NCBI GenBank assembly: GCA_002269645.1
Contig: NIVC01000860.1
Span: forward strand, 62,001 to 126,000
Length of the DNA: 64,000 nucleotides
Origin: Macrostomum lignano
Lineage: Eukaryota
Reading direction: 5' to 3'
This document shows, one piece after another, positions 29,312 to 64,000 of this stretch. Both the position numbers and the translations under genes were made by a program. Position 1 is the first letter of the stretch, and each line of letters starts with the position of its first letter. Below the pieces are notes generated by a model. That model did no database searches and had not been told where the DNA came from. It saw only the letters and a list, made by a program, of their open reading frames with translations.

Positions 29312-29645
29312 TCACCCAGCCGCAATACTTAGCGTCATCCTCATCAGCAGCACCAGCGCCAGCGGCAGCAGCGTCGCCGACCGGACTGCCGAGACTGCCG
29401 AGTTGCAGAAGTCAGTATGGCAGCAGAAGGACTCCGGGCTGGCCACGCACGCCTCCGAGGCGAAGCGAGACACCACATTGTTGGTGGTGAGCTTGACACA
29501 CCAGGCACCCTGCTGGGAGCCCATCTGGGACAAGCTGAGCCCGTCACAGTTTGAGCAGGAGTAGCAGCTCACCGTAGCAGACAGGACCAGCTCAGGTGCT
29601 AGGAGCAAAAAAAATAGTTGGGAATAAAATTCTCAACTGAAGCAT
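29312..29645 (-). CDS. Ly6/uPAR GPI-anchored protein, copy 5 (divergent; 1-nt frameshift in the signal peptide)
   Basis: CYSCSNC...CCHTDFCN plus GPI tail. ATG at 29645 reads MLQLRILFPTIF and joins LLLAPELVLS if one base is removed from the A8 run at 29607-29614. TATAAAG upstream at about 29704-29710. Confidence 0.8.
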
Positions 29646-36028: not shown

Positions 36029-39000
36029 TTACTTGCGCGACGTGGACGAAGCCGAGCGCAGTTCGCGGGAGCCTCTGGCGCTGTCGGCGCCTCTCCCGAG
36101 GCCGCTAGAGGCAGCGGCAGTCGCTGTGTCGACGTCCCAGCGTTCCAGCTCGGCGCGCATCAGCTCCTCGGCGCGTCGGCTCCGTTCAGCCTCGTCGCTG
36201 CCGGCCCCCTCCATGCCAGACAGAGCGTCCAGCACGCGGGTCATCGCCTCGCGTCGGCGCAGCTTGGCCCGCTCCATCAGCTCCAGCTTGAGCAGTACGG
36301 AGTCGATCTTCTGGACAATGTCGCCGATGCTCATCTCGACGCGGTCGACACGTTTAACCAAGACCTGCAAGGGTGACAATAGTAAGAGACCACCCGCTTT
36401 GAGCACTGCCGCGAATCGATGTGACAGTCGTGAAGGCACTCTGGAATAGAAATGAAATATCATGGAACCTACCTGGAATTCAGCAGGGCTGACTAGCTTG
36501 CGTCCTCCGCCGCGGCCGCGACCTCCTCCACCAGAAGTCCGGGTTGAAGCCGCGGTAGCAGCAGCCGGCAGAGCGTCTCCGTCGGCTTCCATTTCGTCCT
36601 CATCGTCGGGCTCAAGTTCTTCGTTCGCAGCTTGTTTGCTGTTAATCATCTGGTCGAGGTTTTCCTGGATTTTGGTAGACAAATGAGTGCATCTTATCGG
36701 CTTAAGTCAAAGAAGCTGGGTGCAAGTTAAAACATTTTCCTGACTTAATTTGTAAACTTACACGCTGTCCCTCAAGCTCGAGGTGCATCTGACGCTGCTC
36801 CTCTTCATTGAGGACCCGATCTCCGTCCAGATCGAACTTGGCAAAGAGTGCTTCAATCTCGCCGTCAGCGTAACCGCGTCTACAATTTTTTTTTTCATAG
36901 CGCACAGTGACTTCGCAAAACTTAGCATCTCTTAAAAAACATCTACAAAAATATCCAGCCATACTTTTAAAAATGTGACCCATATACCAGGCGATCCTTT
37001 TACCAGGTGACCGTTTTACCAGGTAATTCTTGTACCAGGTGACCGTTTTACCGGGTGACCGTTTTTCCAGGTGACCCTTTTACCAGTTGACCGTTTTACC
37101 AGGTGACCCTTTTACCAGGTGACCCTTTTACCAGGTGACCGGTTTCCCAGGTGACCCTTTTACCAGGTGACCCTTTTACCAGGTGACCCTTTTACCAGGT
37201 GACCGTTTTACCAGGTGACCCTTCTACCAGGTGACCCTTTTACCAGGTGATCCTTTTACCAGGTGACCCTTTTACCAGGTGATCCTTTTACCAGGTGACC
37301 CTTTTACCAGGTGACCCTTTTACCAGGTGACCCTTTTACCAAGTGACCGTTTTACCAGGTGACCCTTTTACCAGGTGACCCTTTTACCAAGTGACCCTTT
37401 TACCAGGTGACCCTTTTACTTCTAGTTGGTAACACTTCTGGGTAAAATTATATAGCTCATATATTGAATATAGAGTTTGCTCACTGTTTCAGCTCAGCCC
37501 TCCACTCCTCAAAGTCCAGCTGCTTGTCATTGTTGAGATCGGCCGATTGAATGGCCTTCTGAATGTCGACAATCTTGTCGCGACGCAAATTCAATTTCGA
37601 CAGCATCCGACTGGCCCTCTGCTTGAAATAGTCGGTCATTTCGAATTCGTTCTGCTGCATTGACAGGTCAGACTTCACCTGGCTGTAGGTGTCGTTGATG
37701 ATGGCCAGGAACATGTTGATCAGCACGAAGAAGACGAAGAACACATACAGGATGAAGAAGATCGGTCCCAGTACGCGATTGGCAGTTTGCAGCGAGTTGA
37801 AATCGAAGTCGCCCAAGATGATGCGGAACAGGGTGAACACCGACTGCTGGAACTCGCGGAAGTCTTTCACCTGGGTGCCGAAGATCAGGTAGCCCAGCTG
37901 GGCGAAGGCGAAGAACACAATGAAAAACATGATAGCAAAGCCCATCAGATCCTTGGCGCAGGCGCCCAGAGTGGAGCTGAGCTGCGTCATGGTCTTGTTG
38001 AAGCTGATGTACTTGAAGATCTTCACCCAGGCGAAGAACACCGTGATGGCAATGCCGTGGTTGAACTGCTGCTGCCAGTAGGACAGGAAGTCAAAGTCAG
38101 GAAAGTTATTCTCGTCTTGCAGCAGGGTGGTGAGCTTCTGGCCCACCGCGACGGTCCGGTAGACGTTAAACGCAGCACAAACAGTGCTGATGACAATGAC
38201 AAGGATGTCCAGACAGTTCCAGAAGCAGCGGAAGTAGCGCCACTTGTGCTTCTTGATCTCGAGGGCCTCCTCAACAATGTAGTAAAGGATGAAGAGCATG
38301 AAGACGCACTCGCAGGCTAAGATGAAGTAGTCCATGGGCTCAACGTAGCGCAGCAGCTTGACGGTACGCAGATCCCAGGTGGGTAGACAGCCACCTGTAC
38401 ATTAAATGCGACAGAGCACAGTTTGTATGATCAAACCGAGTGATATTGTCGTAGATTAATTGCTGTTTCTCTATTTGGAAGCCGAATCGTTTGTTAAGGA
38501 CATTCTGCAGTATTTTTGCTAAAATCGCCTACGCTAGGGGTTCGGAAAAGTCCGGCCCGCAAAGCCTCTCCGGCCCGCAAAGCCTCTCCGGCCCGCAAAG
38601 CCTCTCCGGCCCGCAAAGCCTCTCCGGCCCGCAAAGCCTCTCCGGCCCGCAAAGCCTCTCCGGCCCGCAAAGCCTCTCCGGCCCGCAAAGCCTCTCCGGC
38701 CCGCAAAGCCTCTCCGGCCCGCAAAGCCTCTCCGGCCCGCAAAGCCTCTCCGGCCCGAAAAGCCTCTCCGGCCCGCAAAGCCTCTCCGGCCCTCAGATCC
38801 TTTAAAGCTTCACAATCGCAATCCGGCGCGCTGGAGGTTTGTGTCTCTTCTCATCTCCACTCGCCTCCTCTTCTCTCCTCTCTCCTGTCGTCTCTCCTCT
38901 CCTCTTCTCTCATCTCCTCTCTCCTCTCCTCCCCTCTCTCCTATATCTTCTCCTCTCCTCTCCCCTCTCATCTCCTCTCCTCTCTTCTTTCCTCTCCTCT

Positions 39001-41755
39001 CCTCCCCTCTCTCCTATTTCTTCTCCTCTCCTCTCCCCTCTCCTCTCTCCTCTCCTCTCCTCTCCTCTCTTTTTTCCTCTCCTCTCCTCTCCTCTCCTCT
39101 CTCCTTTCCTCTCCTCTCCTCTCCTCTCCTCTCCTCTCTCCTTTCCTCTCCTCTCCTCTCCTCTCCTCTCCTCTCTCCTTTCCTCTCCGCTCCTCTCCTC
39201 TCCTCTCCTCTCTCCTTTCCTCTCCTCTCCTCTCCTCTCCTCTCCTCTCTCCTTTCCTCTCCGCTCCTCTCCTCTCCTCACTCCTCTCTCCTCTCCTCTT
39301 CTATCTGATCCTTTTTCCTCTCCTCTCTAGACTCCTCTCCTTTCCTTTCCTTTCCTCTCTCTCTTTCCTCTTCCTCCTTTCCTTCCTCCTCGATTCCTTG
39401 TTAGGAAGCCCCTTAGTGAAGCATGGTCAATGAAGGATTTTATTCCCTGTCAGGTCTAAGCAACAATTTTTGCGTCGTTTGCCCTCTCTCCCTGGGAAAC
39501 AATCAGCTCACCCGTAGCCATGAACTCCGTGACCAGCCGGATGACGCAGAACAAGTTGATGTTGGCATTGTAGAGCGTGAAGTCGATGAAGACGGCCCTG
39601 GTGCCGCGGTTCACCCACAGCTTGCTGTAGAGCTCCTTGAGAATGGCCTGCGTCGTGGCCTTGTCTCGGGATAGTTCAACAGCGAAGCCGCCGCCGTCGT
39701 AGGACGAAATTTCGGCGTTGTGCGACCGGCCGTCGAGCTGCTCCTCGCTGCGGTACTGCCAGGCTGTGCTGTTGCCGAGGCCGAAGCTGCTCTTGTCAGT
39801 GACGCCGTAGCTGTACTTGGCGTAGCAGGTGGAGATTTTGCCCTGAAAGTAGGACGCGATGTTGCAGGACTGGTTGCTGACTCGAAGCTGACGGAGGCGT
39901 GGAACTCCGAGCAATTTGTTCTCGTAGTAGATGAAGTTCTTCTCGCGCGGATCCGAGAAATTGGCGCTGTTGTACCAGGTGTCCCAGTACAGGCCGTTCA
40001 TCAGCGGGCCGTTCACGAACTGCGGTTGTTAAAGTACATTTAAACTACTTTTCGGCCATGCACTCGAACAAATACAAAAGACCGAATCTTAGACATAACT
40101 TTTTGGTTTCTCGACGCAAAATAAAAAGGACGTTCTACATCAGATGTCGGCAGGCAAAACTTTTTTAGAAGAACCTATCGCATGACTGCGGACCAGAGGA
40201 GGGGAGAACTGAGAGAGATAAGCAACAGAGAGATGAGAGGCGAGAGGCGATGCGAAAAGAGAGGAGGGGAGAGGAGGGGAGAGAGGAGAAGAGACAGGAG
40301 ACAGGAGAAAGGAGAGAGGAGAGAGGAGAGAGGAGAGAGAAGAGAGGAGAGAGAAGAGAGGAGAGGGAAGAGAGGAGAGAGTAGAAGAGAGAGGAGACGA
40401 GAGAGGAGAGAGGAGAGAGGAGAGGGAAGTGAGAAGAGAGGAGAGAGGAGAGGAGACAGGAGAGGAGACAGGAGACAGGAGAAAAGAGGGAGGAGAGAGG
40501 AGAGAGGAGAGGGAAGTGAGAAGAGAGGAGAGAGGAGAGGAGACAGGAGAGGAGACAGGAGACAGGAGAAAAGAGGGAGGAGAGAGGAGAGAGGAGAGGG
40601 AAGTGAGAAGAGAGGAGAGAGGAGAGGAGACAGGAGAGGAGACAGGAGACAGGAGAAAAGAGGGAGGAGAGAGGAGAGAGGAGAGGGAAGAGAGGAGAGA
40701 GGAGAGAGGAGAGAGGAGAGAGGTGAGAGGAGAGGGAAGAGAGGAGAGAGGAGAGAGAGAGACGAGAGGAGAGGAGGCGAAGGGAGCTGAGAAGACACGA
40801 ACCTTGAGCAGGCCGGATTGCTATTGTGAGTTTCAAAGGACGCCATGGCCGGATAGAGAGGCTTCGCGGGCCGCATATGGCCCACGGTCCGGAGTCTGCC
40901 AACCCCATGCAGTTCTACATGTATAGATTTTGTCTTTATAAGTTTTGGCAAATTTCAAAATTTTCTTTAAAAAAAGGGTCAAAGAAAACCAAACCTCTAA
41001 ATATTCAGAAGGGCTTTTCATCACTTATCACCAAAAAGGCGATCTAGTTTTACTGCCACAATGCCGATAAAAATTGATTCTGAAGCAACCCGGAAAGACT
41101 CACGCTCCACCAGTCGCCCATATTTCCAACGCTGCGATAATTGTTAGTGGTGTTTTCAATTTTGGTGTCCAGAAAGAGGTCGCTCAGCACCTTCGTGTAA
41201 TAGTACATTGTGCTGCTGGTCATCCCGAAGGTAACTGCAATTAGCGGTAGCGTTAAAATGAAAGCTGTAGTGTCACAGGGACTCTTTTCACTAACGGTAA
41301 TAAAACTTACTGATCATGAGCACAATGATGAAGATGCAATAGATGATTAGCTCCCGCAGAGTGGTCTTGATGTACAGCTCTCGGTCCTCTTTAGTGTCCT
41401 GCGTGTCTCGAGTTCGCCATATCGCTGCAAAATTTTTAGAGGGGGGACAGAGCATAAAATATTTAATTTTAATAGAGCCGCCATACATGCTAAATTTGAT
41501 TTACAAGCCCCACTCACACTGTAGGCCGTGCTTGCAGGACTTCAGGCAGCCGCAGCCGCTCTTGCCATCGCCGTCGCCGTCTTTGCCATCGGCGTCGAGC
41601 TGACGATGCCCTCCGGCGCTTTGGCCTCGAACGGCGATCGGTTCGGTGTCCAAGACGTTCGGGTTCTCGAGTCCAGTCTCCCAGGCCTGCATCGTGCTCG
41701 ATCGGCCGGTGGACGGCCTCGACATTGGTGGCTCGTTTGCTTGGGCAGTCGCCAT
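36029..41755 (-). CDS. PKD2: Polycystin-2 / TRPP cation channel, 8 exons, 848 aa
   Basis: Exons 41755-41518, 41424-41311, 41234-41104, 40019-39512, 38394-37485, 36879-36762, 36664-36473, 36364-36029, all GT-AG with consistent phases (2547 nt). Motifs [61 protein letters not shown]-hand, [17 protein letters not shown]. Confidence 0.95.
36985..37420. repeat. 16-bp minisatellite (ACCAGGTGACCCTTTT)n in PKD2 intron 5
   Basis: About 26 tandem copies. Confidence 0.95.
38535..39415 (+). mobile_element. hAT-like MITE, copy A, with an amplified 18-mer and a (CTCCT)n tract, in PKD2 intron 4
   Basis: Starts TAGGGGTTCGG; (GGCCCGCAAAGCCTCTCC)x~13; shared segment TCCGGCCCTC...CCTTT...ACAAT.GCAATCCGG...GGTTTGTGTCT; about 550-bp pyrimidine tract; ends GAAGCCCCTTAG. 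Confidence 0.6.
40140..40910 (-). mobile_element. hAT-like MITE, copy B (inverted), with a (GAGAG)n tract, in PKD2 intron 3
   Basis: Minus strand GGGGTTGGCAGACTCCGGACCGTGGGCCATATGCGGCCCGCGAAGCCTCTCTATCCGGCC resembles hAT subterminal motifs and matches copies A and C. Confidence 0.6.
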
Positions 41756-45801: not shown

Positions 45802-48800
45802 TCAATTTTCGCCAATAAGAGCCAGCAAAATTTTGCAGTAATCCCCGCTTGTGTCGTCCTTGATCCACTGGGCCAAACTCTGGCCGAATTCTTTCTGGAA
45901 GGCGTCCTTGATCTGCACCATGTCCACCTCGCAGCGGCTGATAATAATGCGCAGGAGGGTGCGGTCGTCCGTGCCTGTGGGTTCCAGTGAGATCGGCTGT
46001 GCACCCTGCATCAATCCAGACTCCCTGCATCAATCCAGGCACCCTACACCAATCCAGGCACCCTGCATCAATCCAGGCACCCTACATCAATCCAGACTTC
46101 CTGCATCAATCCAGGCACCCTACATCAATCCAGGCGCCCTAAATCAATCCAGACTCCCTGCATCAATCCAGGCACCCTACATCAATCTAGGCACCCTACA
46201 TCAATCCAGGCACCCTGCGTCAATCCAGACTCCCTGCATCAATCCAGGCACCCTGCGTCAATCCAGACTCCCTACATCAATCTAGGCACCCTACATCAAT
46301 CCAGACTCCCTGCATCAATCCAGGCACCCTGCGTCAATCCAGACTCCCTGCATCAATCCAGGCACCCTGCGTCAATCCAGACTCCCTACATCAATCTAGG
46401 CACCCTACATCAATCCAGACTCCCTGCATCAATCCAGGCACCCTGCGTCAATCCAGACTCCCTGCATCAATCCAGGCACCCTACACCAATCCAGGCACCC
46501 TGCATCAATCCAGGCACCCTACATCAATCTAGGCACCCTACATCAATCCAGGCACCCTACATCAATCCAGACTTCCTACATCAATCCAGGCACCCTACAT
46601 CAATCCAGGCACCCTACATCAATCTAGGCACCCTACATCAATCCAGGCACCCTACATCAATCCAGACTTCCTACATCAATCCAGGCACCCTACATCAATC
46701 TAGGCACCCTACATCAATCCAGACTCCCTGCATCAATCCAGGCACCCTACATCAATCCAGGCGCCCTAAATCAATCCAGACTCCCTGCATCAATCCAGGC
46801 ACCCTACATCAATCCAGGCACCCTACATCAATCCAGACTTCCTGCATCAATCCAGGCACCCTACATCAATCCAGGCGCCCTAAATCAATCCAGACTCCCT
46901 GCATCAATCCAGGCACCCTACATCAATCCAGGCACCCTACATCAATCCAGGCACCCTACATCAATCCAGACTCCCTGCATCAATCCAGGCACCCTACATC
47001 AATCCAGGCGCCCTAAATCAATCCAGACTCCCTGCATCAATCCAGGCACCCTACATCAATCCAGACTTCCTGCATCAATCCAGGCACCCTACATCAATCC
47101 AGGCGCCCTAAATCAATCCAGACTCCCTGCATCAATCCAGGCACCCTACATCAATCCAGGCACCCTACATCAATCCAGACTCCCTGCATCAATCCAGACA
47201 CCCTGCGTCAATCCAGGCACCCTGAATCAATCCAGGCACTCTACATCAATCCAGACTCCCTGCATCAATTCATGCACCCTGCATCAATACAGGTACACAA
47301 AAGTACCAATCTAGGCACTTGGTACTGATATCCAGGCACTCACCCAGTCCTTTCATGGACTTTTGCAGCGCCTTGGCAAAGTAGGCTGGCTTATTCTGCA
47401 CGCATCTGATGAGAGTCAGCATCGCTTTGAGCAGGTCGCCCGACATCTCCGACTTCAAGGAATCCTCCAGCGTCTTGCCAGTGAGGCTCTCGTACTCGGC
47501 GAACACCGCCCGCAGGTGGGCATTGTTGTTGCCGCAGAGGATCTCATTAAATTTGCTCTCGTCGGTGCCCCACTTGCCAATGCCGGCCTCCTGCAGGGCC
47601 TGGGCGTCCTTCTTGGCCTGCACGGGGTCGAAGGAGCTGCCCTCGGGCCGGGCGCCAGTCAGCAGCGACACCAGAATGCGCTTGAAGTGGCCGGAGGTCT
47701 CCGACATCACGTCCTCCTCGAGGTCGCGATTGTACACTGCAAAGAGACGGAAGTTGACCGATCAGTTGTCAATCGAGACTAAGACCTGATCACTTCGACA
47801 CCTAAAGTACATCGCGTACGAAGAACAAAATAAAGCAGTGCGCTCACTGTTGTGGTAGATTTTCTTCACCTCCTGCACCTGGGCTTGGGTTCTGGTGCAG
47901 ATGACCTCGATCAGGCAGTCCTCGTCCGTGCCGAGGCCTTTCATAGCCGCGCGCAGCTCCATAGCGTCGTACTCGGCCGCGCCCAGGCACAAGTTCTGGC
48001 AGATTTTGTTGAAGTTGCCGCTCAACTCGCTATCCAAATCAGCTTTGAGATCCTTGCCGTACTTCATCTTGAAGGCGCGGACAATCTCCTGACGCTGAGA
48101 GACGGTCCGATGGCCCAGAACATTGATGATGCTCTCCTCGTTGGTGCCGAGGCCTTTCATGGCCTTACGCAGCTGCTCAGCGTCGGCGTTGGCGTTGAAG
48201 CTGTCGTAGGGCTTCAGCGTGCCCTCCTGGACGTACTCCTCCTGCTGGAAGTAGGCCTCGTCCACTGGCTTGGGCGGCTGCTCCTCCGGCGCCTTCAACT
48301 TGATGGCGTCGGCCTTCTCGTGACTGGTCTGCTTGACCTCCGTCTCCATCTTGTGATTCGGCGGGGGCGTCGGGTTCCTGCGCCTCGGCGGCGGCGGAGT
48401 CGGCGCCTTCTTGGCTGGCGGCTGTTTCGGCTTCGGCGGCGGCTGCACCTTCGGCTCGCTCAACGGCTTCTTGTAGCCCGGCTTACCGATCTGCACCGTC
48501 AGCAGGTAGGAGTCGGTGGACTCGTCCAGCTCAGCTGAAATCACCTGCGTCAGGTCGGGTAGTCAGTCGGAGGAAGGGCGTGGTGAAAAAAACAACTTAA
48601 AAGCGTTGAAATGTGACTCCAGGACTCCAGGGTTGAAATGTGACCAGCACAAAATGGAATTCATAGGCAAAATGATCCCACTAGTACCAGTATGAAAATG
48701 TGGCATCAACCTGAAGTTCCTTTAACTCCAAGATAAACTTCAACGAAGTTTTAAAAGCTTTCCACAAATGCTGGGTGTAAATAATTGGTCTGAGGCTAAA

Positions 48801-54970: not shown

Positions 54971-55516
54971 TAGAATAGAATAGAAAAGACGCATAGGGTT
55001 ACAGACTCCTAGCGCGCACGCGTTCGCAAAACAGTTCAGAGGGGCAGAGAGCAGTGTTACTCGGGGTCAGGTCAAGGTCTCTGAGGTCGTCAGTCAGAGC
55101 CTGGATCAGCATGGCAGCACGGCCTTGGCCGCCTCGAAGCCGTTCTCACGGTGGGTGAAGCAACGCCATCGCGAGAGGGTTCACTTCACCGCGACCGTGC
55201 CGTCGCAGAACGTGGCCGGCGAGGGTTTGTCGCCGCCACCGCAGGACAACGCTGAGAGTCGGAAGGTCTTGGCGCCGGTCGAGATCGCGGTTCGAGATGG
55301 TCTCGTGGAATCGGATGCCTAGTGTGTAGCGGAGAAGCGCCCGGTAGATGCCGTTTAGCGCGTTTTCTCGGGTGGTGGTCACCGGTACGGCTTCCAGTCC
55401 GTAGAGCAGGATCGGTTCGACTGTGGCGCGGAAAAGCTTGATCTTGAGGGCGTCAGGCGCTGCGGAGTAGAACATAGGGCTGATCTTGACTGCAGCACGC
55501 CAGGATTGTGCTTTCG
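54971..55516 (-). mobile_element. 5'-truncated non-LTR retrotransposon with 13-bp target-site duplication
   Basis: TSD TAGGTTTGAACTA at 54958-54970 and 55517-55529; RT C-terminus KIKLFRATVEPILLYGLE...RRQTLAGHVLR; (TTCTA)n tail. Confidence 0.9.
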
Positions 55517-55643
55517 TAGGTTTGAACTAATCGAACAACTAGGAAATATGGGAATATGGATGAAAGCAGTCTGTACAGAACTTTATCCATGTGTCCTACA
55601 CTCGCATTTAGAATAGACGATTTTTATTCAATACGCTTCGCAG

Positions 55644-57392
55644 GAAACCGCTAGTCTGCTGGACCCCGCGAGTTCGGAGTCAGCTGATGGCCAGCCAATC
55701 GAGGCCAGTCCCATTTGCAAGCTAAAATGCCTCGTCCTTGGTCTGGTTATCGTTGCCATCGGGGTCGTTGCCTCGCTGAACAAAGGCGCCGCGACCTACC
55801 AGGAGAAGCACGAGATCCCGCTCAACAAAAGTAACTGGCCATGGCACCAGAGAGACAACCCAAACTTGTGGGTCTGCTGGGTTATTAAGTGCATTCAATT
55901 GTTGACGGGCATTGCCTCAATGGTCTTCCTGAACAAAAGAGTAATGCAAGAAGGCAGAATTACCAATGCTATTTATCAAAACCCGGCTCTACCGCAGTTA
56001 CGATATTTGCTGGGAAATTTGCGTCGATTTCAAGAACTGCCAGAGAACTTTTCCAACTATCCAACCAAAATGTTTATTTCAATATTCATCATATTTGCCA
56101 TCCTTGGCATAGTCTGTGCCATTGCTGAGACAATTAGCGACCTCATCGAGGCAATTGATCCTAATGTATACGAGATGCTGCCGTACGCGGATGTACTGCG
56201 CTGTGTCCTGCTGTTTGCATTCATACTACTGCAGGCTTGGTTCTTTACTAAAAACAATCGGATGTGTCTGAATTGGAAGCTGGACGGAGCCTGGGTAGCC
56301 ATGACAATTATACTGGCTACCAATGTGTCATTGTGGTTCTTCTACATCTCCTATGAAATTTCCAAGATAGCCGGGGAAAACCACACTTGCCATACCAATG
56401 AAACAACGAGGAAGAAACTTCACGAGAGCTTTGATATGATAGTCGAGATCATGTTCCCGTTTCTGATTGAATTCTTTCTCATGGGAGCCATACTGGCAGC
56501 CAGTTTCTTGTCTAACATTGGGCGGCTGAGCTGTATTTTAAAACAGCTGCAGCAGAGTGTCCCCTATCTGACTAACGACGCTATTCGGGACAAGCTGTTC
56601 AGCTCGTCGGCTGCTCAACGAAGTCTAAGAAATTTCAAATACCATCTTCGTAAACACCTGCGCAGCCTGCTCTTAGGCATCGCGTTGGCCGGTTCAGCTA
56701 TCCTCATCTCCTTGATGATGAAACTGTTTACATGCGAAAGAGAACCGTGGCACCTCCTGACACTCTACATTCTGGCCGTACTATTCGTGGCCGGATCGGT
56801 ATGCTGCGTTGTGCTGCTGCGAGCCTTCAGGGCAGCTGGAGAAGCTACGGTTGAGACGAAGGCTCGAACTGCGGCAGACAGGCTGATGCTCTGGTTCTGT
56901 GTTGTGGCCGTAGTAGTAAATGACCTGAACCGGTTATGGGGCTTGTTTCAGAGTGACAAGCCACTCTACAATGCTATTGGCACCGGTTTGGTTATTGTGT
57001 TTGACATCGTACAGAGCGTGCTGCAAGTTTACGTGCTCGAGTGCATCCTGCTGAGGCGGATTAAGTCCACGAACGTGCAGGTTGGCGGCAGTCACAGTTG
57101 GGGCGCTCGCTTACTCACCGTTCTCATGGTGATCAATGCGCTTGAGTGGCTGGTCAGCGCCGTAGCCTTCAGTCTGTTTTTCTTCACCAGCAACAGCCAA
57201 AGAAGTGCAGCCACCATGGCTCTGGTAGTGATTAGCGCACCTCTGCAGGTGTTCTTCCGGTTTCATTCGGTTGGCTGCATCCATGAATTTCGGAAGCACT
57301 GTCGCGAGGTCAACGAGCCGAGAAGGCCAGTACCGCCCAGCATCCCGATCGACTTCCCGAGCATAACACCTCGGTATGGAGCTGTGGTATGA
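55644..57392 (+). CDS. Otopetrin-family proton channel (one large exon, open 55644-57392; start not resolved)
   Basis: Many hydrophobic helices; ATNVSLW, FPFLIEFFL and C-terminal PLQVFFRFHS match otopetrin motifs (ATNL..W, YP..IEY, FYR.HS). Frame is open from the CAG acceptor at 55641-55643, with no in-frame ATG back to the TAG at 55614. Confidence 0.8.
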   Translation, partial: ETASLLDPASSESADGQPIEASPICKLKCLVLGLVIVAIGVVASLNKGAATYQEKHEIPLNKSNWPWHQRDNPNLWVCWVIKCIQLLTGIASMVFLNKRVMQEGRITNAIYQNPALPQLRYLLGNLRRFQELPENFSNYPTKMFISIFIIFAILGIVCAIAETISDLIEAIDPNVYEMLPYADVLRCVLLFAFILLQAWFFTKNNRMCLNWKLDGAWVAMTIILATNVSLWFFYISYEISKIAGENHTCHTNETTRKKLHESFDMIVEIMFPFLIEFFLMGAILAASFLSNIGRLSCILKQLQQSVPYLTNDAIRDKLFSSSAAQRSLRNFKYHLRKHLRSLLLGIALAGSAILISLMMKLFTCEREPWHLLTLYILAVLFVAGSVCCVVLLRAFRAAGEATVETKARTAADRLMLWFCVVAVVVNDLNRLWGLFQSDKPLYNAIGTGLVIVFDIVQSVLQVYVLECILLRRIKSTNVQVGGSHSWGARLLTVLMVINALEWLVSAVAFSLFFFTSNSQRSAATMALVVISAPLQVFFRFHSVGCIHEFRKHCREVNEPRRPVPPSIPIDFPSITPRYGAVV

Positions 57393-57734
57393 TCTGCCGT
57401 AACTCGACGCAATTCTGTCACATTATGCACAACTTTCTGCGGTTTCGATATTATCCCGGAGACAACCTTTTAACTAAACTAAACGTCCTGTAAATGTGTT
57501 TATCGGATAACTGTTTGGATTTTTAATTTTTTTGCTACGATTTTTCCAGAAAGTTGAACATCTTATTTATTACGCTGACTAAGTAGGAAGTGGTTATTCG
57601 ACCATCTATTCAGTTCATCAAGCCTTGCCTCTGTTTATCGGTTTTTCTCTTTTACTGTATAGTTCAGCAGGGTTTGGTTCTGATTATCTCTCTCCCACGC
57701 TGGCGCCAGCACGAGTATAAGGAGCTCCAATTTT

Positions 57735-57870
57735 TAAGCTAAGGGGCGCAAAGAATGCGTGTAGGGGGCGAAAAGTCAAGCTTAAGGGCGCAAAGATTGC
57801 GTGTAGGGGGCGAAAAGTCAAGCTTAAGGGCGCAAAGATTGCGTGTAGGGGGCGAAAAGTCAAGCGAAAA
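57735..57870. repeat. 42-bp tandem repeat, 3 copies
   Basis: TAAGGGCGCAAAGATTGCGTGTAGGGGGCGAAAAGTCAAGCT repeated. Confidence 0.85.
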
Positions 57871-58379
57871 GTGTAGCGGGCAATTCTCGGTAAGCAAATC
57901 TGGACGGGCAATTAGTCTGCGGGCATTTCTCATGGACCCGAGTAGGTGTCAGTGTCAGAATCGAGGTTAAATTTACATACAGTCAACAACAATTGGGAGT
58001 GTTGGTTTCGAAAAAGTTCAGTTTTAACAACAAAAGACCGGCTACACTGCAGTGTAAAACCTGAATTCCGTTCAGTCCCAGTTTAACAACAGTAGTAGTA
58101 GGGCGAATCATGATACTGCCGCATATGCACTGGCGAGATAGGCGGCAAAAAGGATAGGAAAAATACACTGCGGAGAGGGATCCTATCTCTATGCAATGGG
58201 CCCTTGGGGGACGGCTAAACAATGCGTTTTTGGCTTGTATTCAGGGCCCTAGCCGGGGGGGGGGCAAGACGGGCCGCGGCCCCCCCCCCAATCGGCTGAC
58301 AAAACTTTGCGGCGCCCCCTCCCATCAGCGGGTCTTGGTCGTCAGTAGAAGGCATGAGGGGGCTTCTGGGACAAAATTT

Positions 58380-58690
58380 TTCACGTCCTCCATAATCCAC
58401 CTAAATCCATCCATATTATCCCCGACAGAATCAGAAAAAAGGGGGGTCGCACTCGCTCACAAAACCTCCTCCATAATCCACCTAAATCCATCCATATTAT
58501 CCCTGACAGAATCAGAAAAAAGGGGGGGGGTCGCACTCGCTCACAAAACGTCCTCCATAATCCCATTAAATACATCCATATTATCCCTGACAGAATCTTG
58601 AAAAAGGGGAGGGGTCGCACTTGCTCTGAAAACTTCGAACATAATCCTATTAAATCCATCCATATTATCCCCGACAGAATCAGAGCATAA
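58380..58690. repeat. ~82-84-bp subterminal tandem repeat, 4 copies
   Basis: TCCTCCATAATCCACCTAAATCCATCCATATTATCCC.GACAGAATCAGAAAAAAGGGGGG.TCGCACTCGCTCACAAAAC recurring at about 58386, 58467, 58551 and 58635. Confidence 0.9.
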
Positions 58691-58893
58691 AAAGTGTCCA
58701 CTGACACCTGTTATGCTCACTGACACTGACATAAATCCACTGACATTTACCCATAGCATCTTCGAAACAATCAGAAAATAATCTGCATTCTTCTCCCCAC
58801 ATTCAATCCGCAACGTGCTACCAGATCCCTAAGACTTTAAATAATCAGCGCAGGGTCCTCACCCTTTGAAAAAAATTAAATTCTCAATAAAAA

Positions 58894-59133
58894 ATGTTTC
58901 CAGTTGTCTCTCCAGGTTCTTATTATACTCAGCCTAATCCATTGTACAAATCCAAGTACCAATGCAAACTTGAATGCAGCGAATACATGAGAAAATATTG
59001 GCCCAGCGTTGATATCAATGTCCCTAATATTAATCTAGCTCTCCAAAGACACTGGTTTCATAAGTATGGAGTAACCTACGTAAAAGATTACGACAGCTAC
59101 TATAACTTTGCAGAAATCATTAGGCAATTGTAA
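58894..59133 (+). CDS. Hypothetical viral protein (79 aa, Tyr-rich)
   Basis: AATAAAAAATG start like the neighbouring viral ORFs; convergent with the penton, 8 bp apart. Confidence 0.6.
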   Translation: MFPVVSPGSYYTQPNPLYKSKYQCKLECSEYMRKYWPSVDINVPNINLALQRHWFHKYGVTYVKDYDSYYNFAEIIRQL

Positions 59134-59141
59134 TTCTTTTC

Positions 59142-60004
59142 TCACATTCTCTCAATGATCAACGTCAATACAAACTCTTCACCGTTGAAATCAACGCCCA
59201 TCCCATCTTCAGTCTCAAACTGTAGCACAATCTCGTGAATCTCCTTATTACTCAATACAACTCTTTTCACTGGATTTGGTTTCTCTACCACCATCTGTCC
59301 TCCAGCAACAGAGTTGGAGATGTTGTACAAAATATTCGTTCGCTTTCCCTTAAATACCCAATCAAGACTGAGATTGCTTCTGATTAGAATATTCAAACCC
59401 TTTACAATGTCTGCAATATTGGGTGCTAAGAACAAACCGCTTACACTTTCCCGGACCATTCTAACAGTCCCCGATGCTTGAGTGGCGGTCTGCGCCGCGG
59501 ATTCTGCCTTATAAACTTTCTTCTCGAATCCTAGTTCCCTATACCAAGTGTCATCTTTAAACTCAACCTCCGCATTTTGTGAACTTGCATGACCACTCTC
59601 ATTACAGTGAGATCATAGGTTAGTTTGACAGGGAACAGTTTCTTCTCTGGCTTACTCGCATCAGGTGTCTCAAAATGGCCTCTCTTAGTAAAGACATTTT
59701 CTAGAAAGTTATTGTAGGTATCCACACTTTGCGTGCTCACATGGAATACCACAGGGTCTGCTGCTGCACCTTTCCATTTGTAATAAAACTTATTATTTGC
59801 TGCCATCACATTAGGAACGTTTGACCAACCGGTGAAGTCGTTAAGATAGACATGGTAATTAGCACCTGGATCCAAGCGAATCGCCTGCTCTAATTTTTCA
59901 ACTAATATCCCGTTTGAGTCATTAATTCGCCCAGTTATTGTAATAGGAATGCTCTCCTTAGAGTGAGAAACAATATTATTTAGTCTTTCAGCAATCGCTT
60001 CCAT
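59142..60004 (-). CDS. Minor capsid (penton-like) protein, about 287 aa, split by a 1-nt deletion
   Basis: ORFs 59531-60004 and 59142-59459 join if one A is added to the run at 59575-59578 (HKNAEVEFKDDTWYRELGFEKK). C-terminus EIHEIVLQFETEDGMGVDFNGEEFVLTLII resembles the Polinton penton pattern; sits directly downstream of the MCP. Confidence 0.78.
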
Positions 60005-60026
60005 TTTTTTTCACAAAAAAAAATAT

Positions 60027-61313
60027 TTAAACTTTACTGGATGAATTGTTGATCATGTTAAGCTTCACCTTCCTCTCAAATGCATAGATAATGTACAGGT
60101 CCACGGGTGTTGCGGTAGTCCTTTCAATGTTAGTCACGATATTCACAGGGCTGTTATCAGTAGGCATTTGTCTGGCAGACACATCAGCGCCAAACATCGG
60201 ATATAGAGTTCCATATTGAAGAGCAGTGATAGCAATTCCATTGTTCTCTTTCACAGCCAAGTCGACCAACTCGCTGTAAAATTTGCTAATCTTGTTCTGA
60301 CTGAAATCTCCATTTTGTGGCAGTGCAGGGTAAAGATTATCACTGATTTCATGCTGAATGGACCGCACGTCTCCATGCATGTAGCGTATGATGCTATTTG
60401 GGTTTCTCATATTAATAATGATATACCTTGGATTGCTGCATGATCCCTCTTTAATGCAGATATTTGTTCTAGTTTCGTTTCGCTCATCTCGACACATGTA
60501 GGCTGTGTATGCAACATCAATGTCCTTCTCTATTGCCTTAAGATAATCCGCTTTTAGTGCAGTCTTTGGCTCAATGACTTCCAAATACAGCTCGATTCCG
60601 GTTAGCTTCACCTCCATCCTTGTGTGGTCCGCCCCAGTCCACAACACTCTACTGCGATCATCTCTAGTCATCCTAAATGTGTAGCTAAAGTTACTAGTCA
60701 TTCGATTAAATGTATTACAGAATCCACTCATGAATCTCAATGGTACAAATACATCAACAGACCGATACTGCGGGTTCTTAGCAGCATCATCTGCACCTTG
60801 CAATGCATAGTTGTATCTCTTCTTCCTCTTTTTATAGCCACTGTCATTGATATCTCCTTCTTTTTCATCTGCAATAAAACCCGCACCACTTCCCAATTGA
60901 ATAAAATCAGGATTCTCGATCAAACAATGAGCGTCATAGACAATTCCAAAGTTGGCGATTCGCTCCAACTCAGTGCTCCCATTCGATACACTAAACTCCT
61001 TGAACATGTACGCCCAAAAGTTACTGATCAGAGCCACATCCGCATCATGCTTGTCAACGTTAGCACGAGCCGCATCCGCACCACCTTTTGTCTTGAATTG
61101 AAATGTCATATGGAAGCCGCTCTTAAGACTGTGCACACTAACCAGAGACGAACATCCATTGTATGTAAATGTCAGTGTTTGACCTGGACCCAAATTAGTT
61201 TCATTCTGGTTCTCGTGACTCGGAACTCTAACTTGTGTCGCTTTGATTGTGCTATCATCACTCAAAATAGGCTTGTTAATTTTGTAGAAAACTGGTGTCA
61301 GTGGGTCGTTCAT
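60027..61313 (-). CDS. Major capsid protein (double jelly-roll, Polinton/adintovirus hexon-like), 428 aa
   Basis: Intact ORF of typical size with beta-strand-rich alternation; motifs FVPLRFMSGF, KLTGIELYL, PRYIII, LYP...DF...FYSEL, YPMFGADVS recalled from Polinton MCPs; adjacent to penton and ATPase. Confidence 0.8.
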   Translation of the reverse strand: MNDPLTPVFYKINKPILSDDSTIKATQVRVPSHENQNETNLGPGQTLTFTYNGCSSLVSVHSLKSGFHMTFQFKTKGGADAARANVDKHDADVALISNFWAYMFKEFSVSNGSTELERIANFGIVYDAHCLIENPDFIQLGSGAGFIADEKEGDINDSGYKKRKKRYNYALQGADDAAKNPQYRSVDVFVPLRFMSGFCNTFNRMTSNFSYTFRMTRDDRSRVLWTGADHTRMEVKLTGIELYLEVIEPKTALKADYLKAIEKDIDVAYTAYMCRDERNETRTNICIKEGSCSNPRYIIINMRNPNSIIRYMHGDVRSIQHEISDNLYPALPQNGDFSQNKISKFYSELVDLAVKENNGIAITALQYGTLYPMFGADVSARQMPTDNSPVNIVTNIERTTATPVDLYIIYAFERKVKLNMINNSSSKV

Positions 61314-61343
61314 TTTTTAACTAAAAATAAAATAAAATAAGAA

Positions 61344-62558
61344 ATGAAGCGGAAAAGTTCATATCATATCTCTGAACTAGAAAAGCTGGCGCAAGCAGAG
61401 AAACGAGTTACCGGACTAATCAACAAAGAACAACAATCTTACAATGAATTCGTCCAAGCAGCCACCGAATTTCACAAACCTGGATACACAGAAGCGAAGA
61501 AAAACATCGACACTGTGAAGGAAACAATTGATGATATTCAAGAGAGCCAGTTGCAAAACACATTGGGTAAAATCCCATCTTCACCGGGACAACCACAGGC
61601 TCAGCAACCAGGACAACCAGTGCAGATGAAAGTGACGGATAACTTTTTTGGCCCCGTAACGGATGATGGAAAATATATATTTGGAATTAGCGCCTGGCGA
61701 AAAAATATCACCGGGGAACCGGCGGATTACAACATTGAAGTGACGAAGGAAACTATTTCAATCAATAAAGGCGCAGAAACTAAACGAATCCCCTTCACTC
61801 AAAGTTTACTCGACTACATGACTAAAAATCAGGAAAAAATATCCGAGAAGCAATTAAAGAATTATAGAGATCTGGTTACCTTCGCTTTAGAGAGGGACAT
61901 AGACATTCTCAAGAACAACGGTGTTTTGAAAGTTTTACATGAAAACAGGATTGACTTGAACAGGTTTAGAAAATACAAATACTTTAAACAATGGTTTGGT
62001 TTGCCGGATCAAGAAGAGGTCATAAGACAACAACCACAACAACCACAGCCACAACAGCAGCAACCACAACAGCAGCAACCAAAACAACAACTACAACAAC
62101 CACAACAGCAGCAACCACAAACACAACCACAACCACAACAACCTCCACCGCCACAGCAACAAATCACACCCGAACAAGTACTAGAAGCACTTGAAAAAGC
62201 AGGGCCAAATGAGATTTCCCAGTACAAAGATACAAACCCTGATACTTGGCGACAATTAGAGCGGCTCTCCCCAGAACGAATGAAGCGAATCAATGACAGA
62301 GTATTCACACCTCAACAAAGACAAGCGCCACATGACAGTTCCTCCTCTGACCAATCATTCGAATCACCTCCAAGCTCTTCCGGAAAAGGCATGCCTGAAT
62401 TCTACAAGCGGTTAGCTGTTCTTCTAGGAGCGGCAAAGACCGGAATGAAAGACGAGAATAGAAAAGAATTTGTCAACATCCTGGACAAAATGCTTGAGAG
62501 AAAATATATCGATAAAAGAGCAAGAGAACTTTTGCTTTCACGGTTTAACAAAAAATAA
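61344..62558 (+). CDS. Conserved Polinton-type hypothetical protein with Q/P-rich insert (404 aa)
   Basis: N-terminal coiled coil, FTQSLLDYM...LKNYRDLV segment, CAA/CAG repeat at about 62030-62165, C-terminal GKG...KRLAVLLGAAKTG...EFVNILDKML. Confidence 0.75.
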   Translation: MKRKSSYHISELEKLAQAEKRVTGLINKEQQSYNEFVQAATEFHKPGYTEAKKNIDTVKETIDDIQESQLQNTLGKIPSSPGQPQAQQPGQPVQMKVTDNFFGPVTDDGKYIFGISAWRKNITGEPADYNIEVTKETISINKGAETKRIPFTQSLLDYMTKNQEKISEKQLKNYRDLVTFALERDIDILKNNGVLKVLHENRIDLNRFRKYKYFKQWFGLPDQEEVIRQQPQQPQPQQQQPQQQQPKQQLQQPQQQQPQTQPQPQQPPPPQQQITPEQVLEALEKAGPNEISQYKDTNPDTWRQLERLSPERMKRINDRVFTPQQRQAPHDSSSSDQSFESPPSSSGKGMPEFYKRLAVLLGAAKTGMKDENRKEFVNILDKMLERKYIDKRARELLLSRFNKK

Positions 62559-62574
62559 ATTTCTATTTAAAAAG

Positions 62575-62953
62575 ATGCCGATTATTTTTTGAGAAAGACG
62601 TGGAAAAATACTATGACAAAGAGGAACTTAATCTTATTAAACGCGGATCTGGACTTTTCCCTGCAGGCCACTATCCAAGAAAAGAACGCTCAGGGAACGG
62701 TCTTGCCGATTTGATCGCTCAGGGGGCCAAGATTTTTAAGGTCATTGGAGAGAACAAAGAGAACATCAAGAACGTTGCCGAAGCGGCTGGCAGTGTAGCC
62801 ACAGCAGCCAAAAAGATAAAGGATACTGTAACACCTAAACAAGAGATTCAACCGCTGGCTCCGCTGGCCCCAAATCCAGACAATGTGGACCCTGCAGTCT
62901 ATGAGAAGATGAGAGCTAGCATTAAAAAGGGAAGCGGTTTCAAATTTGACTAA
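62575..62953 (+). CDS. Small core/lytic-like virion protein candidate with GxG motifs (1-nt frameshift at the N-terminus)
   Basis: ATG at 62575 gives MPIIFEKDVEKYY if one T is removed from the T6 run at 62585-62590; KRGSGL, RSGNGL, KKGSGF motifs; amphipathic LADLIAQGAKIFKVIGE. Confidence 0.65.
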
Positions 62954-62997
62954 AGGGTACTTTTCAAGGGTACAAGACATGTAAGAGTATAAGACTA

Positions 62998-63102
62998 GTC
63001 CTGAAATGACACATCTAAGTCCCAAAATGACACATCTAAGTCCCAAAATGACACATCTAAGTCCCAAAACGACACATTCAAGTCCCGAAATGACACATCT
63101 TC
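62998..63102. repeat. 21-bp direct repeat, 5 copies, in viral intergenic region
   Basis: (CCCAAAATGACACATCTAAGT)n immediately upstream of the ATPase. Confidence 0.9.
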
Positions 63103-63145
63103 TAAATGATTTATTATTTAATTTTTTTTTCAATCATAGAAAAAA

Positions 63146-63946
63146 ATGGACTTCTCAAACGACTTCAATCCTCACTGGACGCGTAATCAGATTAAGTTTT
63201 CTCATCACGAGTCAATCCCGAGTCACTTCAGATGCATTGTTGTTGGTTCGTCAGGTTCAGGTAAAACATTCAGAGTCTTTAACATGCTTCTTAGACCTGG
63301 ATTTATCGACTATGACACTCTGCACATCTACTCTCCCACACTGTATAAAGATGAGTATAGAATGCTGATTGCAGGGCTTCAAAACAAGCTGAACAAAGAG
63401 GACATTATTGCATGTTTTAATAACCAAATGAGCCTTCCCAGTAACCCTGAAATTGTAGCTGCCGAATATGCAAAGCACCTCAAAGACAATGAAAAATGGC
63501 AGAACATTAAAGTGTTCACCTATGGAGATCCACAGGCTGATCCAAAGACCAAACTTCTACCCCAACCAGATGAGCTAGAAAAGGGGAGAAAGCATTTGAT
63601 CGTCTTTGATGATTGTATGACAGGCCCACAGAAGCAGATAGAAAACTATTTTACAAGAGGGCGACATAACAATTGCAATGTAATTTACATTGCACAGAAT
63701 TGGTTCGAGCTCCCGAACAAAACAATTCGCGGGAACTGCAATCTGATTCTCCTGTTTCCAACCATTCCACAGGACAGGTTAAAAAGATTTTACAATGAGG
63801 TCATTGCGCCTGCCTATTTCATAAATCCAACAAAAAACTCAAGCAGAAAGATTTCACAAGAGGAATTCGTTAATCTTTGCTATGACAAGTGGAATCAGCC
63901 TTACCAGTTTGTGATTATCAGCAAAGAAAAAAGAACTGTAATTTAA
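63146..63946 (+). CDS. A32/FtsK-HerA family DNA packaging ATPase (266 aa)
   Basis: Walker A VVGSSGSGKT, Walker B HLIVFDDCM, A32 signature FTRGRHNNCNVIYIAQNWFELP...IRGNCN. Confidence 0.93.
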   Translation: MDFSNDFNPHWTRNQIKFSHHESIPSHFRCIVVGSSGSGKTFRVFNMLLRPGFIDYDTLHIYSPTLYKDEYRMLIAGLQNKLNKEDIIACFNNQMSLPSNPEIVAAEYAKHLKDNEKWQNIKVFTYGDPQADPKTKLLPQPDELEKGRKHLIVFDDCMTGPQKQIENYFTRGRHNNCNVIYIAQNWFELPNKTIRGNCNLILLFPTIPQDRLKRFYNEVIAPAYFINPTKNSSRKISQEEFVNLCYDKWNQPYQFVIISKEKRTVI

Positions 63947-63962
63947 AATTTGCTATTAAAAG

Positions 63963-64000
63963 ATGTCGATAAACTTTGCAGGTGAATCCATTTCTGGCAA
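63963..64000 (+). CDS. Start of next viral ORF (truncated by the window edge)
   Basis: TATTAAAAGATG start context like that at 62575; MSINFAGESISG is open to the end. Confidence 0.4.
   Translation, partial: MSINFAGESISG

Follow-up and report, generated by a model that had tools for sequence, protein, structure and literature searches.

The last 5.9 kb of the window (the whole stretch of Macrostomum lignano DNA analysed, 64 kb) were read as a Polinton/Maverick provirus (Polintoviricetes, adintovirus-like) of which the left arm is visible, inserted next to an otopetrin gene, with a life cycle taken from the family and a proposed mode of expression. We put the probability of this reading at about 0.82. 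A terminal (AGT)n motif, a double jelly-roll (DJR) major capsid protein (MCP), a gene of the penton family and an A32 ATPase were present, the flanks were animal, and we infer strict Polinton membership. The viral identity proposed in a first-pass annotation of the same DNA holds on the capsid fold, the penton family, the ATPase and the terminus (Table 1). Its description of the element as near-intact was overstated: the penton gene and a gene of 134 codons are each frameshifted, and 5.9 kb are visible of an element expected to measure approximately 12–25 kb. As given, the sequence is not an intact Maverick in the sense of PMC8097293, where core ORFs are uninterrupted.

Table 1. Features of the viral stretch, in window coordinates
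Feature	Coordinates	Strand	Basis or remarks
Candidate TSD AACAAC, 6 bp	58085..58090	.	Read from sequence
Left terminal motif (AGT)3AG	58091..58101	+	Predicted origin of protein-primed, jumping-back replication (putative function)
Non-coding terminal region, candidate left TIR, 803 bp	58091..58893	.	Reported TIRs 46–1447 bp
G-run/C-run palindrome	58254..58290	.	Inside terminal region
Subterminal tandem repeat	58383..58684	.	84-bp unit, 3.6 copies, 87% match
Accessory ORF, 79 aa	58894..59133	+	Start context resembles other genes
Minor capsid protein (penton, PX), frameshifted	59142..60004	-	N-half and C-half in different frames
DJR MCP (PY/hexon), 428 aa, open	60027..61313	-	Pfam, AF2, Foldseek, VIA
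Spacer between two divergent start codons, 30 bp	61314..61343	.	93% AT
404-aa protein, open	61344..62558	+	Coiled N-part, Q/P-rich linker, GKG motif, 59-aa C-terminal helical domain
134-codon basic frame	62549..62953	+	Three K/R-x-G-x-G motifs, predicted amphipathic helix
Intergenic tandem repeat	62997..63100	.	21-bp unit, 5 copies
A32/FtsK-type genome-packaging ATPase, 266 aa, open	63146..63946	+	Pfam; Walker A and B in translation
Next gene, opening 12 codons	63963..64000	+	Truncated by window edge

Genomic context and layout

The left end of the element carried the motif AGTAGTAGTAG, that is (AGT)3AG, which was the sole copy of this 11-mer on both strands of the window (approximately 0.03 expected from composition). 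A viral terminus had been proposed in the first pass and was borne out by this Maverick-type motif at the left end. The commonest end of vertebrate Mavericks is given as 5'-(AGT)2 in section 7 of PMC8097293, and a 6-bp TSD is described as the norm for Mavericks in the same paper. The flanking host genes (otopetrin, polycystin and annexin) were those of an animal, and the insertion point lay approximately 700 bp downstream of the otopetrin gene. The terminal region gave no blastn match to the rest of the window, and there was no Rfam match in 57300–64000. A search for its inverted partner within 57400–64000 returned only matches of 12–16 nt, at chance level. One inverted match of this size, between the flank (57943–57959) and 58698–58732, was too short to shift the boundary. 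A MITE nested in the terminal region was considered and rejected, as a matching inverted end was not found.

From 58894 to the window edge, 95% of the DNA was coding and most intergenic gaps measured 8–30 bp, which confirmed the abrupt change to dense ORFs noted earlier. The GC3 of the element's coding DNA was 0.38–0.44, compared with 0.60 in the adjoining otopetrin gene; a drop in GC is not distinctive on its own, because GC also falls to 28–40% elsewhere in the window. The genes formed two blocks diverging from a spacer of 30 bp, and the capsid block lay directly inside the left terminus, divergent from the ATPase block, as originally described. Neither the 79-aa ORF nor the truncated gene at the window edge had been annotated in the first pass. 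The former was convergent on the penton gene, with 8 bp separating the stops, and had no family match. Inspection of the ORFs and Pfam matches within 58091–64000 yielded no pPolB, RVE integrase or adenain-like protease, all of which are expected past the window edge.

Virion proteins

The 428-aa MCP matched Pfam PF21738 with an E value of 2e-5, under the gathering cut-off; the same family was matched by 92 of 97 aligned MCP relatives. The AF2 model was of high confidence (pLDDT 92.9) and resembled the Sputnik MCP in Foldseek (E 8.8e-20, TM 0.65) and PBCV-1 in VIA (Z 25.0, rmsd 4.0, 360 aligned). The first-pass annotation had called this protein MCP-like and had proposed a check of the AlphaFold plus Foldseek type, in which the DJR fold was found. 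The top structural matches included virophage, adomavirus and MELD capsids, and Polintons were not ranked above virophages or NCLDVs, since all identities were 6–15%. A sequence search of the PDB with the MCP profile gave 0 matches, and a scan of GTDB genomes with the close MCP alignment gave 49 pattern matches, of which none was confirmed, and no related locus.

The closest MCP relatives were nine in all, seven with 70–77% identity (three of them partial) and two with 43–44%; P0002–P0010 and P0017 were treated as close relatives. In a quick tree of 50 of the 165 MCP hits, picked as near-full-length, 10 MCP rows formed one branch (SH-aLRT 100), and all rows were unnamed. This clade was placed on a long branch (0.79), and relatives outside it were at most 28% identical. 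The MCP departed from conserved columns at 20 of 254 positions, compared with 12–24 of 246–258 in four relatives, and was thus without excess.

Both halves of the penton were 56–66% identical to all six relatives found (P0011–P0016), which are ORFs of 277–332 aa, five of them open at 277–280 aa; the search for penton relatives gave identities of 56–62%. The frames change hands at approximately 59555–59582, at a short T run, and the C-half carries an insertion of 22 residues relative to the relatives. The N-half departed from conserved columns 8–11 times, at the upper end compared with 2–9 in the relatives. The model of relative P0013 was of low confidence (pLDDT 60, TM approximately 0.3) and aligned with the mavirus penton (Z 8.6, rmsd 9.6, 208 aligned) and with viral minor capsid proteins (E 2e-9 to 3e-8). 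In the ESM Atlas, P0013 matched viral clusters without names at 0.98, a weak result because the recognition value stayed under the threshold. The protein described earlier as penton-like accordingly belongs to the penton family, with a fold modelled at low confidence through P0013; a single jelly-roll penton gene appears to be present, though frameshifted.

The 404-aa protein had four relatives (P0166–P0169; 34–42% identity), and 36 of the 59 positions of its C-terminal domain were invariant in the five sequences. It had no credible match in Pfam or PDB (E 0.22 with the family profile), and its C-terminal domain had no usable match in the ESM Atlas. We take it to resemble a PZ/GasderminX-type core protein, for which it is probably a candidate. 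Decay of this protein was considered and rejected: it has more private changes than its relatives (28 of 140, compared with 5–12), but it also diverges most among the five (44–48% identity, versus 50–63% among the others).

The 134-codon frame lacked an in-frame start; a well-formed ATG at 62575 was out of frame, and the break, which the first pass did not mention, lay near a T6 run. The protein had no match in Pfam, NCBIfam or PHROG, and the hydrophobic moment of its amphipathic helix was not above that of shuffles (55 of 300). Presumably it resembles the PW/Cupiennin type, and it is probably a core/membrane protein of that kind, as a candidate. The two further proteins with GxG motifs reported earlier were recovered as such: the 134-codon frame held three copies against 0.74 expected, and the 404-aa protein held one against 0.71 expected, which was invariant in all five family members. 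The sites depart from the consensus for adenain, quoted as (M/I/L)xGxG in 10.1101/341131. No PLA2 match was found among the visible ORFs.

The assignment of the ATPase as an A32-type packaging enzyme stood, as its match to Pfam Pox_A32 (PF04665; E 3.8e-6, 27 bits) exceeded the gathering cut-off of 22.8. Weak matches in Pfam, PHROG and NCBIfam to Zot (E 0.011), DUF1104 (E 1.4e-4), the terminase large subunit (E 1.2e-7) and PRK00155 were dismissed as generic P-loop or coiled-coil signal. Searches with the ATPase gave no match to phage records (tblastn), 63 matches but 0 confirmed and no related locus in GTDB genomes, and an uninformative best E value of 0.39 in the PDB.

In a life cycle modelled on the family, an RVE integrase encoded further right would have made the insertion with a 6-bp TSD, and a protein-primed PolB would copy excised linear DNA starting at the AGT repeats. 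An icosahedral shell would be assembled from trimers of the MCP and pentamers of the penton, and the ATPase would pump the DNA into it. The two core proteins, of 404 aa and 134 codons, may be matured by an adenain-like protease at K/R-x-G-x-G-like sites, and this maturation would release a membrane-active peptide. The copy as written is without a penton or a full small core protein of its own, and another copy would have to supply both in trans.

Predicted expression

All seven assigned starts had an AT fraction of at least 0.8 in the upstream 30 nt, compared with 2 of the 215 other ATGs of the element, and these leaders contrasted sharply with the starts of four host genes, which are GC-rich. 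An AG lay within 10 nt before the ATG at five of the seven starts (shuffles averaged 1.6, and 24 of 5000 attained the observed count), and an AG with a pyrimidine tract at three (shuffle mean 0.47, 29 of 5000), in a test that was designed post hoc on sequences already seen, with two of the seven starts picked partly by context and with shuffles that break up the A-rich run preceding the ATG. The starts of the penton gene and the 79-aa ORF had no AG nearby.

Since gene gaps of 8–30 bp are too tight, separate promoters and UTRs are unlikely. Most likely, a few long host Pol II transcripts, spliced to acceptors shortly before the start codons, would cover the packed genes; we propose splicing because the acceptor-like AG sites precede ATGs as in adomavirus late genes, for which splice acceptors directly upstream of ATGs are described in 10.1101/341131. 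Among the papers listed by one literature search, no title or abstract opening described the use of spliced leaders by a Polinton/Maverick.

Integrity and origin of the element

The two frameshifts could be assembly errors, in which case the provirus would be intact in the animal and potentially virion-forming. We consider this variant of the Polinton-arm reading quite possible, if short of even odds. Both breaks fall at single-base runs (T4 at 59575–59578, T6 at 62585–62590); runs of at least 6 have only 6% of the element's coding DNA within 10 nt of them, and runs of at least 4 have 36%. The MCP without conserved-column excess, the lack of internal stops in the three long ORFs and a retrotransposon elsewhere in the window that is likewise frameshifted at a short run agree with such errors. 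However, genuine slippage mutations also arise at such runs, and indels are not general in the present sequence, since the otopetrin frame runs through 591 codons without a break, as do four close host paralogues of 109 codons each through theirs. Genuine lesions would also be unexceptional, as endogenous Mavericks are mostly defective (96% in vertebrates) and split pentons are common among the Polintons of PMC4028283 Table S1, and the upper-end count of departures in the penton N-half points the same way. Broken genes (two of the seven visible) would likewise suit a truncated or non-autonomous derivative, in which little or nothing survives beyond the visible arm or the replication genes have decayed; non-autonomous, gene-lacking Polintons are on record in the same table. 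Against this stand the sharp terminus, the open long ORFs and the gene that opens at 63963 with the same start context and crosses the window edge, and we regard such a derivative as unlikely.

It is highly unlikely that the element is instead a Polinton-like or MELD virus, with a helicase-primase or tyrosine recombinase in place of pPolB or RVE, and not a strict Polinton. The accessory genes, which we take to resemble the animal adintovirus set, count against this, as do the (AGT)n end, a motif linked to protein-primed replication, and the membership of the MCP in a Pfam DJR family common to nearly all aligned relatives. In its favour are the virophage, adomavirus and MELD capsids among the best structural matches, the long branch under the MCP clade and, in section 5 of 10.64898/2026.06.19.733378, a Maverick-Polinton group whose members often have SF1/SF3 helicases in place of pPolB. 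No less improbable is a virophage-like element, whose AT-rich leaders would be late promoters for a large cytoplasmic DNA virus and which would form particles only on co-infection. One AT-rich spacer serving two divergent genes, leaders so unlike the starts of the host genes and the Polinton-like elements contained in entomopoxvirus occlusion bodies (10.1101/2023.10.16.562556) would fit such a dependence; yet no helper virus is known here, splice acceptors explain AT-rich leaders with an AG before the ATG at least equally well, and no helper is described for the hosts in which coral and planarian Polintons are transcribed. That the viral stretch is a free virus or a foreign contig, wrongly joined to the scaffold of the host, is barely credible: environmental contamination of assemblies by adintoviruses is on record (PMC8502044 part 2), but the join sits exactly on the terminal motif, as integration predicts.

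For the Polinton arm as preferred here, the recent integration proposed in the first pass is compatible with the data, because the MCP has no excess of conserved-column changes and internal stops are absent from the ORFs of the MCP, the ATPase and the 404-aa protein. The further suggestion that the element could make virions is unsupported for the present copy as written, because its penton is split. The lineage is taken to be under constraint, since its near-full-length close MCP relatives (n = 5) are 71–77% identical and five penton relatives are open; as judged from sequence, the relatives with open genes show the genes to have been kept functional in the lineage.

Relation to known elements

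Vertebrate Mavericks/Beta adintoviruses (group 1 in the mapping of PMC8502044) share with the present element the (AGT)n terminus, intronless genes and two opposed blocks, and, according to PMC8097293 section 7, the DJR MCP, penton and A32 ATPase. By the labels of PMC8502044 Fig. S2, Beta adintoviruses also share a small ORF between the PZ-like gene and the ATPase. The described vertebrate order, int-penton-PW-MCP-protease converging on PolB-ATPase-PM-PZ, sets them apart, and their modules usually point inward (outward in a cane toad element). In the present element, unlike in vertebrate Mavericks, the MCP gene lies upstream of and adjoins the penton gene, the capsid block extends nearly to the terminal region without an adjoining integrase or protease, and the second block begins with the PZ-like gene and ends with the ATPase, diverging from the 30-bp spacer. 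Virophages (Sputnik, mavirus) and adomaviruses have MCP and penton folds as found here at a sequence identity of only 8–12%; the present element gave no evidence of a helper giant virus or of a circular genome replicated by S3H.

Literature searches found nothing relevant on Polintons in Macrostomum and nothing on Polinton/Maverick capsids in Platyhelminthes, and the part of the adintovirus supplement that was available contains no flatworm names. For the planarian Schmidtea, Polintons with a complete set of capsid genes are already on record in PMC4028283 Table S1, where Polinton-1_SM and Polinton-2_SM of Schmidtea mediterranea (14.9 and 15.9 kb), likened to the present element by their gene listing, appear with MCP, penton, ATPase and protease. 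What is distinctive here is the divergent, long-branched capsid clade, the capsid genes at the terminus, the 30-bp divergent spacer and the acceptor-like sites before the starts.

According to published statements, virions of animal Polintons have never been observed directly. Their formation is an open question, to which a locus is relevant if it is intact and expressed and its host is tractable. The single copy described here does not advance this question, because the window truncates it and two of its genes are broken; with a well-preserved capsid gene, a divergent clade and several open relatives, the family is a reasonable target. It is decidedly unlikely that the locus belongs to an undescribed active Polinton lineage with its own layout and acceptor-spliced genes (possibly through spliced-leader trans-splicing by the host), sister copies of which form particles in a laboratory-kept invertebrate; if true, this would provide a system for viewing animal Polinton virions. 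On the plasticity and expression of Polinton genomes, the element contributes modest, testable detail through its rearranged gene order and its acceptor-like leaders. The relatives of the MCP, the penton and the 404-aa protein were unannotated and lay on short contigs (930–3702 nt). Planarian Polintons are described in PMC8532177 as PIWI-repressed and de-silenced upon differentiation.

Left terminus and gene layout

From position 58091 to the window edge runs the left arm of a Polinton-type provirus; it is well preserved, but two of its genes are broken as written and the window edge cuts it off. The (AGT)n-type left end proposed in the first-pass annotation was recovered as the 11-mer AGTAGTAGTAG, which occurred once in the window with both strands counted (approximately 0.03 expected). 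The element had no blastn match elsewhere in the window. Before it lay the host otopetrin frame, separated by approximately 700 bp of non-coding sequence that includes a 42-bp tandem repeat; the element's own terminal region had no match in Rfam. The first Met of the otopetrin frame lay approximately 100 codons in, so an exon or leader further upstream may be spliced onto the frame. The repeat region just outside the terminus (3.1 copies, 96%, then short GC-rich repeats) could be a non-autonomous DNA transposon of small size.

From 58894 to the window edge, 95% of the sequence was coding, with seven visible genes. Penton and major capsid protein (MCP) on the minus strand and the ATPase block on the plus strand diverged from a 30-bp spacer, confirming the predicted capsid block behind the left terminus, divergent from the ATPase block. 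Three of the four gaps between co-directional genes measured 16–22 bp. GC3 was 0.38–0.44 in the element genes versus 0.60 in otopetrin. An AT content of at least 0.8 in the upstream 30 nt was found at 7/7 assigned starts versus 2/215 other ATGs of the element, two of the seven having been picked out partly by this AT-rich context itself. The flanking genes (otopetrin, and polycystin-2 and annexin exons) identified the host as an animal; scans of GTDB genomes found no locus related to the element.

Features of the window, in window coordinates
Feature	Position	Strand	Basis or remark
Retroviral-type aspartyl protease fragment	1846–2304	-	
DDE_3 (Tc1/mariner-type) transposase fragment	3785–4486	+	
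Small cysteine-rich genes, 109 aa, tandem cluster	6258–6584, 11385–11711, 17989–18315, 27106–27432	-	81–94% to first copy
Two diverged, weaker cluster members	29399–29608, 30839–31144		
RTE-like non-LTR retrotransposon	19838–24069	-	Endonuclease and reverse-transcriptase domains, overlapping frames, split near 22100
Polycystin-2 channel, large exon(s)	37481–40028	-	
Annexin with proline-rich linker, large exon(s)	47270–48562	-	
LINE-like C-terminal remnant	55146–55526	-	By eye only
Host otopetrin frame, intronless, 591 codons	55617–57392	+	Pfam, E 2.9e-13
42-bp tandem repeat region	57736–57865		
Terminal region, non-coding	58091–58893	.	G/C palindrome, 84-bp repeat x3.6
79-aa ORF	58894–59133	+	
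Penton	59142–60004	-	
MCP, 428 aa	60027–61313	-	
404-aa ORF	61344–62558	+	
134-codon frame	62549–62953	+	
ATPase, 266 aa	63146–63946	+	
Next gene, first 12 codons, cut by window edge	63963–64000	+	

Capsid proteins

For the 428-aa protein, Pfam gave the family DJR-like_dom at E 2e-5, which falls short of the curated cut-off. A word-based search yielded nine relatives (seven at 70–77% and two at 43–44% identity), and their profile retrieved 539 representatives at E ≤ 0.001. In the alignment of 97 near-full-length sequences drawn from the best 150 of these, 92 matched the same Pfam family. The AlphaFold2 model (pLDDT 92.9, pTM 0.90) was closest in the PDB, by Foldseek, to the capsid protein of the virophage Sputnik (E 8.8e-20, TM 0.65, 8% identity); capsids of iridovirus, PBCV-1, mavirus and PRD1 ranked next. 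BFVD matches were capsids of virophages, adomaviruses, MELD/adintoviruses and NCLDVs, and VIA-align superposed the model on a PBCV-1 capsid chain (Z 25.0, rmsd 4.0, 360 aligned). Through these matches the double jelly-roll capsid fold was shown for the modelled MCP, the order among the distant structural matches assigning no group, and the earlier MCP-like designation was borne out. The element belongs to a divergent clade. In a quick tree search on 50 of 165 MCP sequences, the window protein and nine relatives formed one branch (SH-aLRT 100, length 0.79), with relatives outside it at 28% identity or less.

With the N-terminal penton frame as query, 262 longer candidates yielded six relatives (five of 277–280 aa, one of 332 aa). 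Each aligned to 60004–~59560 in one frame and to ~59580–59145 in another (56–66% identity). Since every relative spanned both frames, the two frames in the window are parts of a single, frameshifted penton gene. To examine the fold, an open relative (P0013) was modelled from a six-sequence alignment, giving a weak model (pLDDT 60). Its top BFVD matches (E 9e-10 to 4e-5, TM about 0.3) were minor capsid/penton proteins from NCLDVs, a MELD virus, mavirus and adomaviruses. Against 48,161 chains, the five best VIA matches all came from capsid structures of double jelly-roll viruses, among them the mavirus penton at Z 8.6 (rmsd 9.6, 208 aligned), but unrelated jelly-rolls came next at Z 6.5 and below. 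Assignment of the family as penton is well supported by these model matches and by its position adjoining the MCP; the penton-like claim thus stood for the family, but the gene itself is frameshifted as written.

ATPase and accessory genes

Against Pfam Pox_A32, the 266-aa ORF scored above the gathering threshold, and it contained Walker A and B motifs, in agreement with its annotation as an A32-type packaging ATPase. The 404-aa protein had four relatives (34–42% identity) sharing an invariant GKG and then a C-terminal domain with 36/59 positions invariant; no named match was found in any domain, structure or profile library searched. The 134-codon frame contained three GxG motifs (0.74 expected), each with K or R two residues before it, as likewise before the GKG in three of the four relatives of the 404-aa protein. 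It had no in-frame start, with the ATG at 62575 out of frame and the break near a T6 run. Of the two further GxG proteins claimed, both carried the motif, but the shorter frame is broken at its start. As a tentative lead, we take the 404-aa protein to resemble PZ/GasderminX and the basic 134-codon frame to resemble PW/Cupiennin proteins. Both types are described for Beta adintoviruses in PMC8502044. The GxG sites of both proteins do not fit the adenain motif (M/I/L)xGxG given in 10.1101/341131, and we therefore only infer cleavage at K/R-x-GxG-type sites.

Intactness of the copy

Two of the seven visible genes (penton and 134-codon frame) were frameshifted, at odds with the description as near-intact. 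Both breaks lay at single-base runs, which fits assembly errors and slippage mutations alike. A retrotransposon in the same window carries a similar break, favouring assembly error, whereas four close host paralogues and otopetrin are unbroken; these numbers are too small to choose between the two. The element showed no sign of long decay. The MCP differed at 20/254 columns conserved in four close relatives (leave-one-out range of those relatives 12–24), and the penton halves carried 8–11 changes at conserved columns versus 2–9 in relatives (N-half) and 4–5 versus 1–8 (other half). The proposed recent integration is compatible with these data. Split pentons are frequent among tabulated Polintons (PMC4028283 Table S1), and defective copies make up 96% of vertebrate Mavericks according to PMC8097293. 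Rather than making virions by itself, as had been suggested, this copy as written would need penton supplied by complementation.

Proposed working of the element

The element would work like a Polinton, of which it is a putative member in the strict sense. No integrase, pPolB or cysteine protease was found within the visible arm (58091–64000). The family scheme in PMC4028283, PMC11161782 and PMC8097293 comprises RVE integrase, a 6-bp TSD, protein-primed replication, ATPase packaging and a cysteine protease. By analogy, an RVE integrase would insert the element with a 6-bp TSD (predicted AACAAC), replication would be protein-primed at the AGT repeats, the ATPase would package DNA into the MCP/penton shell, and a cysteine protease would mature the particle.

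An AG lay within 10 nt of the start in 5/7 genes (reached by 24/5000 shuffles), and an AG with a pyrimidine tract near the start in 3/7 (29/5000), in a post hoc test whose shuffle ignores the A-run before the ATG. The pattern fits splice acceptors directly before start codons, as shown for adomavirus late genes (10.1101/341131). The tightly packed genes may be expressed by splicing to such acceptors, from a shared cis leader or by spliced-leader trans-splicing if the host has it. Short promoters before each gene, read by a helper virus (cf. 10.1101/2023.10.16.562556), are less likely.

Comparison with known elements

Mavericks, Polintons and adintoviruses form one recognised class (10.64898/2026.06.19.733378). 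The gene order of the element differs from the vertebrate Maverick/Beta adintovirus layout, although outward-pointing modules also occur in the cane toad Maverick. PMC4028283 Table S1 lists four Polintons from Schmidtea, of which two have the full set of four virion genes, and PIWI is known to target Polintons in planarians (PMC8532177). The lineage was not described in the literature searched on Macrostomum or platyhelminth Polinton/Maverick capsids, a search lying outside most subscription papers and Repbase. Polintons or Mavericks were not mentioned in the searched portions of two Macrostomum papers (PMC12801592 main text and PMC5730564 supplements), the passages of PMC6431247 added nothing on flatworm Polintons, and PMC10748475 and PMC3671162 contained nothing on the terms looked for. 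Virions of animal Polintons are still unobserved according to PMC11131425. An MCP relative (P0004) and a 404-aa-family relative (P0169) shared a source type and a longest contig of 3512 nt, which faintly suggests that these genes also lie side by side in a relative.

Other features of the window

The 109-aa cysteine-rich proteins had signal-peptide-like and hydrophobic tail ends and resemble Ly6/uPAR three-finger proteins; the one copy scanned had no Pfam match at E 0.01. Minisatellite arrays were very numerous across the whole window (65 TRF rows), with 16–38-bp units and several arrays exceeding 1 kb.
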